From positions 7,948 to 71,947 of the forward strand of contig PMXQ01000080.1 of assembly GCA_003171065.1 (NCBI GenBank): 64,000 nucleotides of DNA, read 5' to 3'. The first letter of the stretch is position 1, and each line of letters begins with the position of its first letter. Position numbers and translations under genes: made by a program. Source of the DNA: Chloroflexota bacterium. GTDB taxonomy: Bacteria > Chloroflexota > Limnocylindria > Limnocylindrales > CSP1-4. Under the pieces are notes generated by a model. It was not told where the DNA came from, did no database searches, and saw only the letters and a program-made list of their open reading frames with translations. This document shows positions 33,181 through 58,493 of this stretch, one piece after another.

Positions 33181-33260
33181 CAGGGGAGTTTAGTCCCGGG
33201 CGTGGGCGAGGGTCAACGCTGCCGAAGAACGCGGCGCCCGGAGTGAGAACGTAAGTACGA

Positions 33261-34760
33261 TTGCCGCCACGCGGGAGGTACCCGCACCATGTGGGGGTGC
33301 GAAACGTCCGTTTGCGGCATCCTTTCAACGCGAGCACGTGGTTTCGCTCTCACGGCGATGGCAGTTCGCCCCGGCTCGGCGAGCGGTCGATCACGCTCAC
33401 CTGGACGCTGCTTTCGATCGCAATCGCGCTCCTTCTTGGACAGGTCGTGGTCGGATTCCTGGTGGGTCGAAACAGCATCGCCGATCTCGCCCTGGCAATC
33501 GCGACTGCGCTGCTCGTGGCCTCGGCCGTCTTGAATGCCCGGGCTTCGGGCATTCTTGTGGAGAGGCGCCACTCCGAGGCCGAGAGCTTCGGCCGGCTGC
33601 TCCAGGCTCTGTCGCGGTCCGTGTCGCCGAACGCGGTCATCGAGGCCATCGTCCACGAGCTCGGCTCCGCGACTCGGGCGGACCACGTGGCTGTGGTGCA
33701 GAAGCGACGCGGCGGCACCGTCCTGGACGTGAGCTTCGTCTCGATGCTGGCCGGATCGCCGGCCTCGAACACCGCCATGCCCATTCGGCAGATGGAGCCC
33801 GTCGAGACGCGACGGTTGCGCACCGCGCCGCGGCCGGCGAGCGGTTCGGCGCTCGTCGCCGACGGATCGCGGCGTGGGAACGAAGGGCCGGACGACGCGT
33901 CGGCGAGTGGGCGCTCTCCGCACTGGCAGTCCCAGGCCGAGCGGCGCGATCCGACCGACGACGGCCTCCGGCGACGCGGCTGGCGGCCGCCGGAGTTCAT
34001 CGCTGCAGTCCAGGAGGACGGAGGGAACGCCCGCGACGTGGCCAACCAGATCGCCCACCAGTTGCGAGACGCCTACGGTCTTCGAAACACTCTGGCCGCA
34101 CCTCTTCTGGACGGCGAATCGATCGTGGGGGCGATCGTCCTGTCGCGCCGCACCAGCGAGCCCTGGACGGACGCCTCGGTCCGGCTGCTGAATAGCGCGG
34201 CCGGCGAGACCACGGCGGCGCTGGCACGGGTCTACTCGCAGCAAGCTGCCGAGGCGGAAGCGCGCACCGACCAGCTGACGCAGCTGCCGAACCGGCGCTA
34301 CTTCGACGAGTACTGCACCCTCGTGGCCAGCCGCCTGCGGGCGTCCGACCGGGTCGGGATCCTGGCCGTCGACGTCGACCATTTCAAGCGCGTCAACGAC
34401 ATGTACGGGCACCAGATCGGCGACCAGGTCCTTCGGGCGATCGGAGACGCAATCCAGATGTCGGTCCGCGAGGAGGATCTGCCGGCCCGCTATGGCGGCG
34501 AGGAATTCATGGTCCTGCTGTGGAACCCGAGCCCCGGCGTGGCGCTGGAGATCGGCGAGCGGATACGCACCACGGTGCGGGAGCTGGACCTCGTGGACGC
34601 GGGCGTGACGGATCGCGTCACCGTGTCGCTCGGAGTGGCGTCCGGGCTCGCTGCCGATGAGCCCATCTCGGAGATCGTGGAGCGGGCGGATCGGGCGCTG
34701 TACGCGGCCAAGCGCACGGGCCGCGACCGGGTCGTGGAGGCCTGGCCTTCGGAGGGGTGA
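33261..34760 (+). CDS. Membrane-anchored GAF-GGDEF diguanylate cyclase
   Basis: Two N-terminal TM segments and a GAF-like middle region. The GGDEF domain has VDVDHFKRVNDMYGHQIGDQVL and an RYGGEEFMVLL active site. The exact start is uncertain. Confidence 0.85.
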   Translation: MPPRGRYPHHVGVRNVRLRHPFNASTWFRSHGDGSSPRLGERSITLTWTLLSIAIALLLGQVVVGFLVGRNSIADLALAIATALLVASAVLNARASGILVERRHSEAESFGRLLQALSRSVSPNAVIEAIVHELGSATRADHVAVVQKRRGGTVLDVSFVSMLAGSPASNTAMPIRQMEPVETRRLRTAPRPASGSALVADGSRRGNEGPDDASASGRSPHWQSQAERRDPTDDGLRRRGWRPPEFIAAVQEDGGNARDVANQIAHQLRDAYGLRNTLAAPLLDGESIVGAIVLSRRTSEPWTDASVRLLNSAAGETTAALARVYSQQAAEAEARTDQLTQLPNRRYFDEYCTLVASRLRASDRVGILAVDVDHFKRVNDMYGHQIGDQVLRAIGDAIQMSVREEDLPARYGGEEFMVLLWNPSPGVALEIGERIRTTVRELDLVDAGVTDRVTVSLGVASGLAADEPISEIVERADRALYAAKRTGRDRVVEAWPSEG

Positions 34761-53218: not shown

Positions 53219-54475
53219 CTACGAGGCGCGAACCGACGGGTTGGTGTTCCGCCCGCCGCCGAAGATGCCCATGAAGCCGCTGCCGACCTTGGCCAGGCCT
53301 GGCTCGGCCGTGGCGATCATGCGGTCGGCGAGCGCCTCGATGTCCTCGATGACCTTCTCTTTGGGGAAGCGTTCTACGGCGGAGCGGCCCTCGTTGGCAG
53401 CCCGAACGAAGAGCATGCCGGCAGACCGAATCTCCGCCAGCGCGGGCATGCCGACGGTTCGTTCCATGTCGGCAACCGAAACGCCGCTGTTGGCACGGTT
53501 CACGACCATGGCCAGGCGCTCGCGGATCTCGAGCTCGACCGCCACCTCGCGGAGCTGGACCGCGGCCCGGATGGCAGGCACGTCGGGCGTGACCGGCACG
53601 AGGATCTTGTCGGCCCGCTCGAAGATGACCTGGTTGAGGGGCCCGTAGTCCGGGTGCATGTCAACCACGACCCAGTCGAAGGCCTGACGAGCGGCAGTGA
53701 TCGCCTCGGCCACGCGCTTCGGCTCGAGGATCTCCGTGTGCAGCGGCGACTCCGCCATCACCAGCACCGCGACGCCGTTGTGATGGACTGAGGCGATTTC
53801 GGCAAACGACTCGACGGCGCCGGTGGTGAGGTCTTCCGTCCACGCATCGGCGACGGTGCGGACGTTCTCCATGCCCAGCGACGAGGCCACATGCCCGGTC
53901 ACGGTATCGCAGTCCACGAGCAGCACGCGCTGCTCCTTGCGGAGCTGCAGCATCGCGGCGACGTTGACCGCTATCGTCGTCTTGCCGACGCCACCCTTGG
54001 GGTTGAACACGATGACGATCTGGCCGCGGCGGGAGTCTCCGTTGTCCGCCGAAGGTCCGCCATCGGTATGGATGACGCCGCCGGTGGACTCCTCCGTGGG
54101 GACCTCAGCGCGGATGAGCATCGCCTCGACCCGCCAGCGCAGAGACTCGGCGGAGTAGGGGCGAGTGAAGTACTCGTCGCTGACACGGGCTCGTCCCGCC
54201 AGTCCCATCCGGTCCAGGGCTCGGGCCGCCACGACCATCAGAGCCGGGATGTTGCGGTCGTCGTCGTGGAGGAGACTGTACATCTCGATCGTGCGATCGA
54301 AGTCGTTCTCCCCGTCCAGGATGGCCACGCCGATGTCCCGGCGCTGGTCGAGAAGAACCTGGAGCTCCTCGGCAGTGTTGACGGCAAGCGCGTCGTAGCC
54401 GGCCTCAGCCAGCTGCGCGCTGACGGCGGCCAGCTCCGCAGGCGGTAGGGCGATTGCGACTGCTGACCGGGGCAC
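53219..54475 (-). CDS. ParA/MinD-family ATPase with N-terminal pseudo-receiver domain (CpaE/TadZ-like architecture)
   Basis: Deviant Walker A IVIVFNPKGGVGKTTIAVNVAAML. The N-terminal 120 aa have a CheY-like pattern (DIGVAILDGE ... YFTRPY) but lack the N-terminal acidic pair. Confidence 0.8.
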   Translation of the reverse strand: MPRSAVAIALPPAELAAVSAQLAEAGYDALAVNTAEELQVLLDQRRDIGVAILDGENDFDRTIEMYSLLHDDDRNIPALMVVAARALDRMGLAGRARVSDEYFTRPYSAESLRWRVEAMLIRAEVPTEESTGGVIHTDGGPSADNGDSRRGQIVIVFNPKGGVGKTTIAVNVAAMLQLRKEQRVLLVDCDTVTGHVASSLGMENVRTVADAWTEDLTTGAVESFAEIASVHHNGVAVLVMAESPLHTEILEPKRVAEAITAARQAFDWVVVDMHPDYGPLNQVIFERADKILVPVTPDVPAIRAAVQLREVAVELEIRERLAMVVNRANSGVSVADMERTVGMPALAEIRSAGMLFVRAANEGRSAVERFPKEKVIEDIEALADRMIATAEPGLAKVGSGFMGIFGGGRNTNPSVRAS

Positions 54476-54519
54476 TGTGACGGGGTCTCCCTTTGGTGCG
54501 CGGGCGCGACGCCGTAAGT

Positions 54520-55455
54520 CTAGCCTTCAGCCTCCGGGTCGTGCGCGGAGACGTTGAGCACTCCATCGCGCTCAGAGACGACCCTGGCCTGGAAGTTGGG
54601 TAGTGTCGAGATGAGCGAACCCAGCGAGATATCCGGGCCGTGGCCCACGGTGAAGATGAACTCGCCGTCTGGGCCGGACGAAACGCCGACGTTCTTGACG
54701 CCGGGCAGACGCCCCAGCTGGCGCTTGAACGTGGCGATGCTGGCCACGCTGACGAGCCCGACGACGACGACCTGAGTCGATTCGACCACCTCCGGCTTGG
54801 GCGCGGCAGCGGCACGAGCCTCCCTGGCGGCCTCCTCTTCGGCAGCTGCGGCAGCTGCGACATCTTCAGCGGAGGGCTCTTGGGGAGGACTCACTACCGC
54901 TTCCGGTTCGCCGCCGAGCAGGTCTTCGGAGCGCATGATCTTCTCGCGCCGCGCCTTGATTTCGGTCGCGAGAGTGCCCCGCTCGGATTCCGCAAAAGTG
55001 GGCGGGTCCGGCATCTGTGCTGCCATGCTGGCGAAGACCGTCGGATCGGCTTCCTGGAGGAGCTGCTCGAAGAACTGAGCGACTTCCTCCGTGAACCCCG
55101 AGACGCGCTTCTGGACGCGCTCGATCTCGAGCTCGATGGCGGAGTTGTACTCCTGCAGCTCCTGCTCGAGCAGCTCGCGACGCCGGGCGATCCGCTGCTC
55201 TGTCTCGACCCGGATGCGCTCTACTTCTGCCTTGGACCAATCCCGGATGGCGCTGACGTCGGCCTCGGCGCCCTTGCGCAGGGATGCCGCCTCGTCGTCC
55301 GTGCGCGCGTGGAGCTTCTCGACGTACGCTTTCGCATCTGCCTGGCACTGATCGATCGTCGCCTGCCGCGCCGTCTCGGCGGTCGAACGCATGGCCTGCG
55401 TGAGGTCCGCCAGGAATCGGTTCGGATGACGCGCGGCCGTCTCGTTCACGCTCAT
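54520..55455 (-). CDS. Coiled-coil protein, paralog A, with an extra C-terminal globular domain
   Basis: MSVNETAARHPNRFLADLTQAMRSTAETARQA...RRRELLEQELQEYNSAIELEIERVQKRV...DPTVFASMAAQMPD aligns without gaps to 55809..56519. It carries an additional C-terminal VVVVGLVSVASIATFKRQLGRLPGVKNVGVSSGPDGEFIFTV. Confidence 0.65.
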   Translation of the reverse strand: MSVNETAARHPNRFLADLTQAMRSTAETARQATIDQCQADAKAYVEKLHARTDDEAASLRKGAEADVSAIRDWSKAEVERIRVETEQRIARRRELLEQELQEYNSAIELEIERVQKRVSGFTEEVAQFFEQLLQEADPTVFASMAAQMPDPPTFAESERGTLATEIKARREKIMRSEDLLGGEPEAVVSPPQEPSAEDVAAAAAAEEEAAREARAAAAPKPEVVESTQVVVVGLVSVASIATFKRQLGRLPGVKNVGVSSGPDGEFIFTVGHGPDISLGSLISTLPNFQARVVSERDGVLNVSAHDPEAEG

Positions 55456-55620
55456 CTCCCCGTTTGTCTCTCCGGGCCCCGGCCGGGCGCCGGAGTCTAC
55501 CCGATCACGTTTGCTACCCAGTGCTTGGTCACAGGAACGTTACCGCAACGGGCCCGTGGCTCCAAGCGCCATTATCGCGGGTCCAAGGTTAGCATCCGGA
55601 GGCTTTCGCTCTGTTGGATG

Positions 55621-55691
55621 ATGGGCCGGGTGTTGCCGGCGGGCACTCCGCTGGAGGTACCAGGACTAACCGCCCTTCCGTACCGCCTCAC
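55621..55691 (-). ncRNA. Conserved ~70-nt noncoding element, copy A (two predicted hairpins), about 165-235 nt upstream of paralog A
   Basis: About 62 of 71 positions are identical to 56670..56739 by hand alignment, while the flanks do not align. Hairpin 1 is GCCGG/CCGGC around a GTGTTG loop. Hairpin 2 is GGTAC...GTACC. Whether it acts as RNA or as a DNA operator is unresolved. Confidence 0.4.
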
Positions 55692-55808: not shown

Positions 55809-56519
55809 CTACCGGGGCTCTTCCGCGTGGGTTTGCGCCGCGGCGCCAGCGGCGGAGTGCCTCCACCAGCGATCCCGAGGCTCCGTCGCCTTCTCGCCGT
55901 TGGAGCCGGCCGTAGCCGGAGCGTCTGAAGCCGGAGCGTCTGAAGCCGCGGCCGCCTCGGCCGTGTCGGCGGGCTCGCCGCGTTCGGCGCGTTGGGCCCG
56001 TTCGTGCTTCGCTCGGAGCTCACTGGCGAACGCCTCTCGGTCCAAATCGGCGAAGACGGGCGCGTCGGGCATCTTGGATGCCATGGTGGCGAAGACGGTG
56101 GGATCAGCGCCCTGGAGGAGCTGCTCGAAGAAGTGAGAGACCTCGGTCTGGAAGGTCTCGACCCGTTCCTGAACGCTTTCGATCTCAAGCTCGACTGCGT
56201 CGTGGAACTCCGCCAGCTCCTGCTCGAGCAGCTCGCGGCGTCGGGACATGCGCTGCTCCGTTTCCTGGCGAACCCGTCCCACCCTGGCCTTCGATCGCTC
56301 GCGGATCGTGGCCACGTCGGCCTCGGCTGCCTGCCGCAGTTCCTCGGAATCGTCCAGCGTTCGGGCCTGGAGCTGTTCCACGTACGTCTTGGCGTCGGCC
56401 TGGTACAGCTCGATGTCCGCCAGCCGCGCCGCCTCGGCGGCCGAGCGCATAACCTGCGTCAGCTCCGCCATCAAAAGGTTCTGGTGGTGCGCCGCCGACT
56501 CGTTCACGCTGATCTCCAT
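55809..56519 (-). CDS. Coiled-coil protein, paralog B
   Basis: MEISVNESAAHHQNLLMAELTQVMRSAAEAARLA...RRRELLEQELAEFHDAVELEIESVQERV...DPTVFATMASKMPD. It has a low-complexity acidic/Ala tail containing an (SDAPA)x2 repeat. Confidence 0.65.
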   Translation of the reverse strand: MEISVNESAAHHQNLLMAELTQVMRSAAEAARLADIELYQADAKTYVEQLQARTLDDSEELRQAAEADVATIRERSKARVGRVRQETEQRMSRRRELLEQELAEFHDAVELEIESVQERVETFQTEVSHFFEQLLQGADPTVFATMASKMPDAPVFADLDREAFASELRAKHERAQRAERGEPADTAEAAAASDAPASDAPATAGSNGEKATEPRDRWWRHSAAGAAAQTHAEEPR

Positions 56520-56669
56520 GGTCCCGGCCCCCGCGTCCTCGCAGAACGGAGGCTAGAGGCCCACGATACTACCCCGCGTCCGGCCCGGGCCCAACCATGA
56601 CACACCAGCCTCGGGACGCCAGCCCATTGTTGCGAGTCCCAGGCCGGGCGGCTAGGGACTTTTCCGAAG

Positions 56670-56739
56670 CATGGCCGGGGTGTTGCCCGCCAGCACCCCG
56701 CTGGAGGTACCAGGACTACCGCCCTTACGTACCGCCGCA
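56670..56739 (-). ncRNA. Conserved ~70-nt noncoding element, copy B, about 150-220 nt upstream of paralog B
   Basis: See copy A. Hairpin 1 here is CGGG/CCCG, with one compensatory pair change relative to copy A. The 1-nt indel and one substitution fall in the hairpin-2 loop. Confidence 0.4.
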
Positions 56740-56784: not shown

Positions 56785-57573
56785 TCAAGTCTCGGGCGGC
56801 CCCGGACGATCCGCTCGGGTCCTCACCGCCTTGTCGGCCCAGGCCGCGAGGACTCGGTCCTTGTGCGGGCGGATGGGACAATGCTCGTCCCGGTTGGCGG
56901 CCTCGTCGCAGTAGCCCAGGGGCACGCACTTGGGGGCGAGGAAGCTGCCGAGGAACGGGCTGACGGCGAAAACCTCGTGGCGAACGAGCTGGAAGAGCCT
57001 CCGGATCTCCCACTGGGCCATCGTGCACAGCCGCAGGCCTGACATGTATATGAGGGCGCGCAGATTCGCCGTCATGACCAGGTTCGTGCGCGTGGCGTTG
57101 GGGAAAACGAAGCGGGCGTCCTCGCCGGGAATGCCGGCCTCGACGAGCTCCGAGTACAGCTCCAGCGCCCCTTCGACCTGTTCCTCGTACTGGTGCCTCA
57201 GCTCCGGATCGGCCTCGGCAATGGTCGCCGGCAGCATCGTGGACACGCCCTTCTTGTACGAGACGTACCGCTGGCTCTGCTGGTCGAAGGCGACGCCGGC
57301 TCTGTGTCGGACGAGCTGGTGGCTGAGGGTCCGACTGACGCCGGTGATCGCGAAGGTGAAGACGACATGCTCGATGGTCGAGCCGTGCCCGGACTCGATC
57401 ACCCGGGCGATCAGCTCACGTTGCTTCTCTAGGGCGATTCGACCGTCGACCGCGCGCTCGAAGATGTCGTCCGGAGCCAGCTCCGAGTAGCAGGTCCGGC
57501 ACGCCGTGTAGATGAGCGGCACGTAGTAGCGCTCGACGATCTCGCGGTTGGGGAAGATGAGCGTGGCCCTCAT
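56785..57573 (-). CDS. thyX: FAD-dependent thymidylate synthase
   Basis: ThyX signature LVRHRAGVAFDQQSQRYV (RHRxxSxxxxSQRY). The start is set at ATG 57573 (MRATLIFPN); the upstream ORF-track extension is not protein-like. Confidence 0.9.
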   Translation of the reverse strand: MRATLIFPNREIVERYYVPLIYTACRTCYSELAPDDIFERAVDGRIALEKQRELIARVIESGHGSTIEHVVFTFAITGVSRTLSHQLVRHRAGVAFDQQSQRYVSYKKGVSTMLPATIAEADPELRHQYEEQVEGALELYSELVEAGIPGEDARFVFPNATRTNLVMTANLRALIYMSGLRLCTMAQWEIRRLFQLVRHEVFAVSPFLGSFLAPKCVPLGYCDEAANRDEHCPIRPHKDRVLAAWADKAVRTRADRPGPPET

Positions 57574-57830
57574 GCCCAGGTCGTGGCGACCCGGGTTGCG
57601 CGGGATCGCGGACCCGGCTGTGCTGGAGGGAGCGCCGGGGGAACCTGCGGCGCCGGGATCGACGGTCACCGCCTCAGGATAGCGACTCCGATCGGCTCGT
57701 GACGGCCGCTGCCCAGGGTTGCCCGCATGCTGCGACGGACCCTCTGGCGTGTCTCGTATGTAGTCGCTTCCGGCTATCAGGAGCAGACATAGCCGTTGAC
57801 GACTATCAACGGCCCCGTTAGCCTGATCGC

Positions 57831-58493
57831 GTGGACGAGATGCAGGGACTGGTTCTGTTCGGCGACGTTGTCGGGTCGCGGCGCGACTCATCCGCGGCCG
57901 CCGAGTGGCTGCGCCACCTCGTCGAGGAGCTGGACCAGGCTTATGGCGAGCAGCGGCTGGCCCCGTTCGGGTTCACCCAGGGCGATGAGCTGCAGGGGCT
58001 TCTGGTCGCCGACGCCGATCCGTTGGTGGCGGTGCTGCACGCGGACTTGAGCCCCGCGGCGCGGCCGATTCGCTGGGTGTGCGTGAAGGGCGGAGTGGAT
58101 ACAGGAGAAGGGCCGGCCACGCAGCGTACGGGCCAGGCCTTCCTGGCCGCGCGGGACGCGATCGAGGCGGCCCGAGCGGGGCACGATCGCCTGGTCATCC
58201 GGACCGGCCAGCCGGAGGCAGACGAGCTTCTGGCCGGCATGACGCCGGCCCTGGCCGACATGCTCGAGGGTTTAACGCCGCGCCAGCGCGCCGTCGGTCG
58301 CATGGCGTTGATCGAAGGCCTGCGCCAGTCGGAAGTCGCCGACAGGCTGGGCGTGCGGCGGGCAACGATCTCGGTTTCGTTCGGGCGGGCGAAGGTCCAG
58401 ACTTTGCAGCGGCTCGTGGCCGCGATCCGCAAGGTCTATTCAAGCGCTGGCACGCCATCCGACTCTGGCGAAGGTCCTGGCCATCTCCCATGA
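57831..58493 (+). CDS. SatD-like protein (nucleotidyl-cyclase-like N-domain plus sigma-region-4-like HTH)
   Basis: LVLFGDVVGSRRDS...GFTQGDELQGLL in the N-domain and LTPRQRAVGRMALIEGLRQSEVADRLGVRRATISVSFGRAK as the C-terminal HTH. The family is assigned from memory of the architecture. Confidence 0.5.
   Translation: MDEMQGLVLFGDVVGSRRDSSAAAEWLRHLVEELDQAYGEQRLAPFGFTQGDELQGLLVADADPLVAVLHADLSPAARPIRWVCVKGGVDTGEGPATQRTGQAFLAARDAIEAARAGHDRLVIRTGQPEADELLAGMTPALADMLEGLTPRQRAVGRMALIEGLRQSEVADRLGVRRATISVSFGRAKVQTLQRLVAAIRKVYSSAGTPSDSGEGPGHLP

Follow-up and report, generated by a model that had tools for sequence, protein, structure and literature searches.

The window analysed here is a stretch of 64,000 nucleotides of DNA, placed by its protein matches in Candidatus Limnocylindrales, Chloroflexota. 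The genes of interest all lie on the minus strand, in the order thyX, paralog B, paralog A and a MinD/ParA-type ATPase, and two copies of a short noncoding element occupy the spacers:

56785 to ~57570, minus strand: thyX, upstream neighbour of paralog B
56670-56739: element copy B, in the spacer between thyX and paralog B
55809-56519, minus strand: paralog B, 236 aa, coiled coil only
55621-55691: element copy A, in the spacer between paralogs B and A
54520-55455, minus strand: paralog A, 311 aa, coiled coil plus C-terminal ferredoxin-like domain
53219-54475, minus strand: MinD/ParA-type ATPase with a receiver-like N-terminus (Ssd/CpaE-like), downstream of paralog A in the same operon

Since the paralogs are encoded on the minus strand, the two element copies lie upstream of both. 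The longest thyX open reading frame spans 56785-57891 on the minus strand (368 aa), with the ThyX domain at residues 126-312, and the true start is probably located about 110 codons 3' of the first in-frame ATG. For the paralogs, the sequence context points to GTG as the probable start codon, at 55447-55449 in paralog A, where it is conserved, and at 56505-56507 in paralog B. The start context common to both (55447-55455 and 56505-56519, minus strand) reads GGGGAG-AUGAGC-GUG-AAC-GAG; the ATG upstream of the GTG is absent from four related loci (L027, L030, L038 and L040), and in paralog B its place is taken by ATC. The predicted structure of paralog A consists of a single helix of 124 residues followed by the ferredoxin-like domain, and structure prediction combined with a fold search gave no clue to DNA or RNA binding for this protein, its HMA/ACT-like matches being weak. 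The ATPase is closest to the actinobacterial Ssd/CpaE family. The pair formed by a coiled-coil gene and an Ssd/MinD/ParA-type ATPase (53219-55455 in the window, 2743-5266 in L047) is kept in all clades examined, which suggests a cell-division or positioning module of Limnocylindria-type Chloroflexota; the coiled-coil/Ssd-like operon is probably division-related.

The first-pass annotation of this DNA had described one and the same element of about 70 nt before both paralogs, and its coordinates and similarity hold. A global alignment of the two copies contains 61 identical columns out of 72 and one 1-nt indel. Both copies contain the exact 21-mer TAGTCCTGGTACCTCCAGCGG, for which 100 shuffles gave no match, and an nhmmer profile built from 57 copies matches only copies A and B within the 64 kb. 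Outside the element, identity between the A and B regions is 73% over the first 480 nt of coding sequence, 56% over the remaining leader and 54% over the 117 nt upstream, and the element is thus less diverged than the genes that follow it, as had been stated. The surrounding leader, on the other hand, had been said not to align; it is in fact alignable in blocks, between the paralogs as well as across relatives, including TTGGACCCGCGATAATGG / TGGGACTCGCAACAATGG, GGGTAG.. and a GC hairpin before the SD. This GC-rich hairpin, CTCCGGCGCCCGGCCGGGGCCCGGAG (55470-55495, minus strand), is located 10-15 nt before the SD of paralog A. The window clade keeps it, one of its pairs varying somewhat among U-G, U-A and C-G, and, lying 3' of the predicted transcription start, it may represent a genuine structure of the 5' UTR. 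Another leader block, CTTGGACCCGCGATAATGG at 55569-55587 (minus strand), reads TGGGACTCGCAACAATGG in the leader of paralog B (~56600-56620). A hairpin may enclose this block in its loop, with a stem that differs from one relative to another. The block could be the -10 of a second promoter in some lineages.

Further copies of the element within the window were sought with the profile and none was found. A GTAC-N19-GGTACC arrangement at 33254-33282, intergenic and upstream of a plus-strand open reading frame starting near 33338, was discarded for its different geometry. GTAC pairs at element-like spacing occur five times in the window (about 1.3 expected), two of the five being the element itself, and the pair at 33254-33282 is probably due to chance. 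A small open reading frame or leader peptide was likewise looked for, and the frame is not preserved among the copies, nor is an ATG conserved on either strand. The plus-strand ATG that was noted at the opening of both copies is present, as the reverse complement of the CAT in a -10-like hexamer described below. The indel had been taken to speak against a peptide; 1-nt indels are frequent within the element, and they rule out this reading.

About 100 Limnocylindrales-type contigs carry the element in front of homologous genes. A protein-seeded genome scan recovered 47 loci, and in nearly all of these nhmmer placed the element 150-240 nt ahead of the homologue of paralog A, with a second copy about 1 kb further upstream wherever paralog B occurs. 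A metagenome scan seeded with a distant homologue yielded 80 more loci, down to 38% protein identity, and in most of those that include the upstream region a diverged version of the element precedes the gene by about 100 nt. In the distant clades, the gene upstream is moaA, transcribed divergently, which shows that the element does not represent the 3' end of a preceding gene; a terminator of the upstream gene was also rejected, given that the element has no terminator-like site and no U tract and also occurs beside a divergent gene. The distance to the start codon varies from about 150 nt in the window clade to about 50 nt in distant clades, and this freedom agrees with a module whose position is set by the transcription start and not by the ribosome-binding site. 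The element always accompanies the coiled-coil gene family and its Ssd/MinD-like neighbour, and no linked regulator gene common to both clades was found in the neighbourhoods compared.

Conservation among these relatives follows a linear layout, in which GGTAC is followed after 22-23 nt by GGTACC, then by a T about 15 nt further on and, after another 23-24 nt, by a hexamer of the form NANNNT. This pattern and its fixed spacings are observed directly: measured from start to start, the two boxes are 22-23 nt apart in 95 of 96 distinct copies and 21 nt apart once, and box 2 is 36-38 nt from the hexamer in the 96 copies, while the sequence between the fixed parts is wholly replaced between clades. 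If the hexamer is numbered -12 to -7, the centres of box 2 and box 1 come to lie near -48 and -71. The parts of the two window copies are:

55680..55684, minus strand: copy A box 1, GGTAC, at about -71 from the predicted start; GTAC core in 57/57 window-clade copies
55648..55661, minus strand: copy A box 2, GGTACC at 55656-55661 (about -48) with the adjoining TCCAGCGG, exact in both copies
55641..55646, minus strand: copy A -35-like hexamer GTGCCC, 17-nt spacer
55630..55636, minus strand: copy A GCAACAC block in the spacer (-25 to -19)
55618..55623, minus strand: copy A -10-like hexamer CATCAT
55610..55611, minus strand: copy A predicted transcription start, 7-8 nt after the hexamer, with a purine in 92% of copies
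56729..56733, minus strand: copy B box 1, GGTAC
56698..56711, minus strand: copy B box 2, GGTACC at 56706-56711 with TCCAGCGG
56691..56696, minus strand: copy B -35-like hexamer GTGCTG, geometry as in copy A
56668..56673, minus strand: copy B -10-like hexamer CATGCT
56660..56661, minus strand: copy B predicted transcription start

The A at position 2 and the T at position 6 of the hexamer are invariant in all 96 distinct copies, against a background for NANNNT of 7%, the chance frequency at one of three offsets. This invariance extends over 13 different hexamers (CATGAT, CATCAT, CATGCT, CAGGAT, TAGCAT, TAGGAT, CACGAT, CAGCAT, CACTAT, CACCAT, CACAGT, AACGAT and TACTGT). A T within the -35-like hexamer is kept 23-24 nt upstream of the hexamer A in 94 of the 96 copies. 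When the distant clades are aligned, T61, A85 and T89 are nearly the sole invariant bases from box 2 to the SD, and several distant lineages read TCCACC-N17-TA(C/G)(G/C)AT. In sigma70 promoters, A-11 and T-7 are the critical bases of the -10 element, the spacer measures 17±1 bp, and an extended -10 TG makes up for weak elements. Here, TG at -15/-14 is found before 14 hexamers that have no T at position 1 and before none of the ten that do (0/10). The invariant A2 and T6, the spacing of the upstream T and the TG pattern fit the sigma70 signature. The -35-like hexamers GTGCCC, TCCACC, TGCACC and TCGAAA, the last three from distant clades and also followed by a 17-nt spacer, match the consensus TTGACA at only 3-4 of six positions. 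The window clade carries C instead of T at -12 without a TG, and a strict promoter scan found no site; these points and the poor -35 count against a promoter.

Further upstream, the GGTACC of box 2 is kept in all clades and the CTCYAGCGG that follows it in most, with CACTAGC or CACAAGT in its place in some distant relatives. The invariant GGTAC/GTACC arms with the indel between them are as first described. The CAACAC loop, also called invariant, is kept in the window clade but absent as a conserved block from the distant clades, and the GCAACAC block that contains it may be a second protein site. In distant loci such as L088 (1396-1440), a direct repeat CCGCTGG stands just before box 2 and again just before the -10-like hexamer, with the complement CTAGCGG between the two repeats; this arrangement is not kept in the window clade and could represent a further operator or an alternative RNA pairing. 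Several other assignments of promoter elements were considered. The combination of GCAACA as -35 with AAAAGT as -10, prompted by an RNA contig end at 56651, was dropped because its spacing fails in copy A. Inspection of the spacing by eye spoke against a sigma54 or ECF-type promoter as the meaning of GGTAC(C), and a GATAAT block about 40 nt downstream was rejected as -10 since copy B (CAACAAT) and L038 do not keep it.

We consider it fairly probable that the element is a duplicated promoter/operator module, composed of a sigma70-type promoter with a weak -35 and two upstream GGTAC(C) boxes. Each copy would be the DNA control region of its own gene. Its 3' third would form the core promoter, in which a 17-nt spacer separates a weak -35 (GTGCCC; distant relatives have TCCACC) from a -10 that reads cAnnaT/TAnnAT. 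RNA polymerase would use these hexamers, and transcription would begin 7-8 nt past the -10, so that the 5' UTRs would measure about 155-160 nt. In the remaining, 5' two-thirds lie the two boxes, 22-23 bp or about two helical turns apart and placed near -48 and -71, positions suited to a regulator that activates or represses a promoter whose -35 is poor; a protein presumably binds them. The gene duplication behind the paralogs would have carried the whole module along. Of the two roles initially suggested for the element, one was that of a protein operator with the GGTACC palindrome, and the comparative data support it.

The other role was a structured cis-regulatory RNA. In its present form, this reading holds that the element, in a 5' UTR or intercistronic region, is transcribed and acts as RNA, for instance as a leader that a protein recognises mainly through its sequence and that controls how the paralog mRNAs are translated or how stable they are. 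When the 57 distinct copies are aligned by sequence, the two-hairpin structure is paired at 82.9% (82.4% in shuffles) and the covariation score of the same alignment is 0.058 (0.057 in shuffles), so that structural covariation is observed to be absent; the outer stem never varies and therefore carries no information either way. Single-sequence folding of both strands gave z values from -1.2 to +1.3, not better than shuffles. The RNAalifold consensus is weak and differs from the two-hairpin structure. The structure conservation index amounts to 0.22 for the window clade and 0.19 for the distant one. With the GGTAC/GTACC arms fixed, the interiors pair no better than shuffled sequence in much of the window clade; their mean z is -0.63, many values are above 0, and natural variants often weaken the inner stem. 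Each of these results argues against a structured RNA. The compensatory change reported for hairpin 1 is true of the A/B pair of this window but reflects no trend across the 57 copies, in which this helix is 64.6% paired and the disputed pair is CG in 23, UG in 6, GC in 2, UA in 2 and unpaired in 24. An Rfam scan of the window had no match at gathering thresholds and only chance-level lncRNA and snoRNA matches at E<=10.

Part of the structural evidence does favour an RNA. The GGUAC and GUACC arms can pair, and some distant lineages keep the potential for a hairpin of 8-11 bp between the boxes, with G.U pairs on the sense strand and, in L096, a perfect 11-bp stem. In an alignment fitted with a covariance model, double changes are also more frequent than in shuffles. 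This alignment is unreliable, with inconsistently gapped distant rows, spurious hits and helices 2 and 3 paired at 66-68%, and the double changes are discounted on that account; the model itself finds distant copies weakly (12-24 bits). By the checks proposed at the outset the structured RNA fails, since many homologous copies exist in relatives but do not covary on the sequence-based alignment. Two pairings with the translation start region were also tried and rejected. A long-range pairing of CCCAUSAUUC with the SD/AUG region fails because the CAU stays where the AUG is lost (L027, L030, L038 and L040), and an anti-SD role of CCUCC fails because several lineages read GGTACCACTAG, with CCUC changed to CCAC; both results count against the RNA reading. 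Lone invariant bases at the exact -35, -11 and -7 spacing are likewise not expected from a fold.

The RNA data at these loci consist of assembled metatranscriptome contigs. For window copy B, the sole RNA contig (run X24, depth 15) covers 56501-56651 and thus begins at +10, with the reservation that such contigs carry neither strand nor true 5' ends and that their ends may reflect assembly breaks. More contigs are available for L004, a related locus with 89% identity to the window in the paralog A protein. Transcription starts were predicted there at ~1792 (copy B) and ~2847 (copy A), and further runs were examined after this prediction. In these later runs, four of 16 left ends fall at 1798, 1809, 2849 and 2859. 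Over all runs, six of 41 left ends lie within +0 to +20 of the predicted starts (0.7 expected; Poisson P ~1e-4), four of the six coming from runs examined after the prediction. The contigs in question start at +2, +12 and +18 for copy A and at +6, +17 and +18 for copy B, a clustering of RNA boundaries that is observed just downstream of the element and that, together with the missing covariation among many homologous copies, speaks against the structured RNA first suggested. Across copy B of this locus, the number of contigs increases from three upstream to 11 downstream and coverage rises about 3-fold. Across copy A the number is nearly flat, from four to five, which suggests read-through from B in addition to A's own promoter.

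RNA contigs also run through both copies, a point in favour of the cis-acting RNA. The element is spanned in several runs, and much of this signal looks like read-through in data that do not give the strand; in L004, runs X26, X27, X30 and X34 have contigs that cross the elements or reach into them, with a depth close to that of the coding sequence. In the distant-clade locus L118, where the upstream gene is divergent, contigs of three runs (1317-1523, 1409-1586 and 1414-1562) cover the predicted -10 at 1443-1448. Three of the four locus-specific contigs of L118 cover element and leader with no co-directional gene upstream, from which it follows that at least some transcripts have their start further upstream. 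L118 has a GGTACTGTACC palindrome and a promoter-like pair GTGACG-N16-TACTGT (1267-1278 and 1247-1274) about 130 nt before box 1. These two features are not conserved in other loci and might explain the RNA contigs that begin upstream of the element. Given this balance, we regard it as rather unlikely that the leader acts as an RNA without a covarying fold, on read-through or upstream-initiated transcripts and bound by a protein, maybe by the coiled-coil paralogs themselves. If it did, it would control the MinD/ParA-linked division module, and the promoter-like spacing would be coincidental or a second, overlapping function.

The same contigs bear on a processing site in a polycistronic thyX-B-A-ssd transcript, where an endonuclease would cut just after CAUSAU and the GGUAC...GUACC hairpin would protect the new 3' end. 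In favour of such cleavage, coverage continues without a break from the upstream genes into the elements, and 5' boundaries are clustered directly after the hexamer in both copies. However, the element of the distant clades is flanked by divergently oriented genes, so that no upstream cistron exists there to be cut off; a cleavage site would give no meaning to the -35/-10 geometry or the TG correlation, and the interior of the hairpin is not maintained. This makes processing very improbable as the function of the element. The constant association with the coiled-coil family and its Ssd/MinD-like neighbour invites a comparison of another kind, with a centromere-like or autoregulatory DNA site, distinct from a promoter, that would be bound by coiled-coil proteins partnering the MinD/ParA-type ATPase as in plasmid par operons. 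Palindromic boxes that recur in phase with the helix agree with such a site, but paralog A offers no DNA-binding fold by structure prediction or fold search and there are only two boxes. The -10/-35 pattern would also be left unexplained by this site alone, which could coexist with a promoter. We give it little credence.

In par operons, repeats upstream of the ParA-type ATPase gene act as operator and centromere. The locus described here resembles them in that its operon, immediately preceded by a conserved site with repeats, encodes a small adaptor-like protein first and a MinD/ParA-family ATPase last. It differs in having two boxes only, in its chromosomal location and in its upstream proteins, which are long coiled coils without a recognisable DNA-binding domain. 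With structured 5' UTR RNAs the element has in common that it is a noncoding sequence of about 70 nt upstream of a gene, conserved within the lineage and present in RNA, in which two hairpins can be drawn. Unlike them, it belongs to no Rfam family, does not covary and has a low structure conservation index; its spacing is rigid while the interiors turn over, and what is conserved in its stems is the sequence, with variation disrupting the pairs. The promoter/operator reading finds its closest counterparts in sigma70 promoters controlled by activators or repressors (class I/II CRP-type or response-regulator-dependent). These likewise combine A-11/T-7 with a poor -35 and a 17-nt spacer, an extended -10 TG in copies that miss T-12, and two short palindromic boxes in fixed helical phasing upstream of the -35; the duplication of the module along with its gene is a further likeness. 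The element departs from them in the C at -12 of the window clade and in the lack of a linked regulator gene. To our knowledge, no regulator motif matches GGTAC(C) boxes with a centre-to-centre spacing of 22-23 bp.

A promoter/operator region is in itself an already familiar feature; what is new is the GGTAC-N17/18-GGTACC motif and the form of the promoter in this lineage. The case also advises caution, since a repeat that is conserved in GC-rich DNA and looks like two hairpins may turn out to be a promoter. We know of no promoters mapped in Limnocylindrales, and the element, if read correctly, would provide a concrete promoter architecture for these uncultured bacteria, which are abundant in soil and peat: a -35 of TCCACC/GTGCC, a 17-nt spacer, a -10 of cAnnaT and an optional TG. 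The candidate operator GGTAC-N17/18-GGTACC marks a conserved operon of coiled-coil and Ssd/MinD-like ATPase genes and could help to find the regulator and its regulon.
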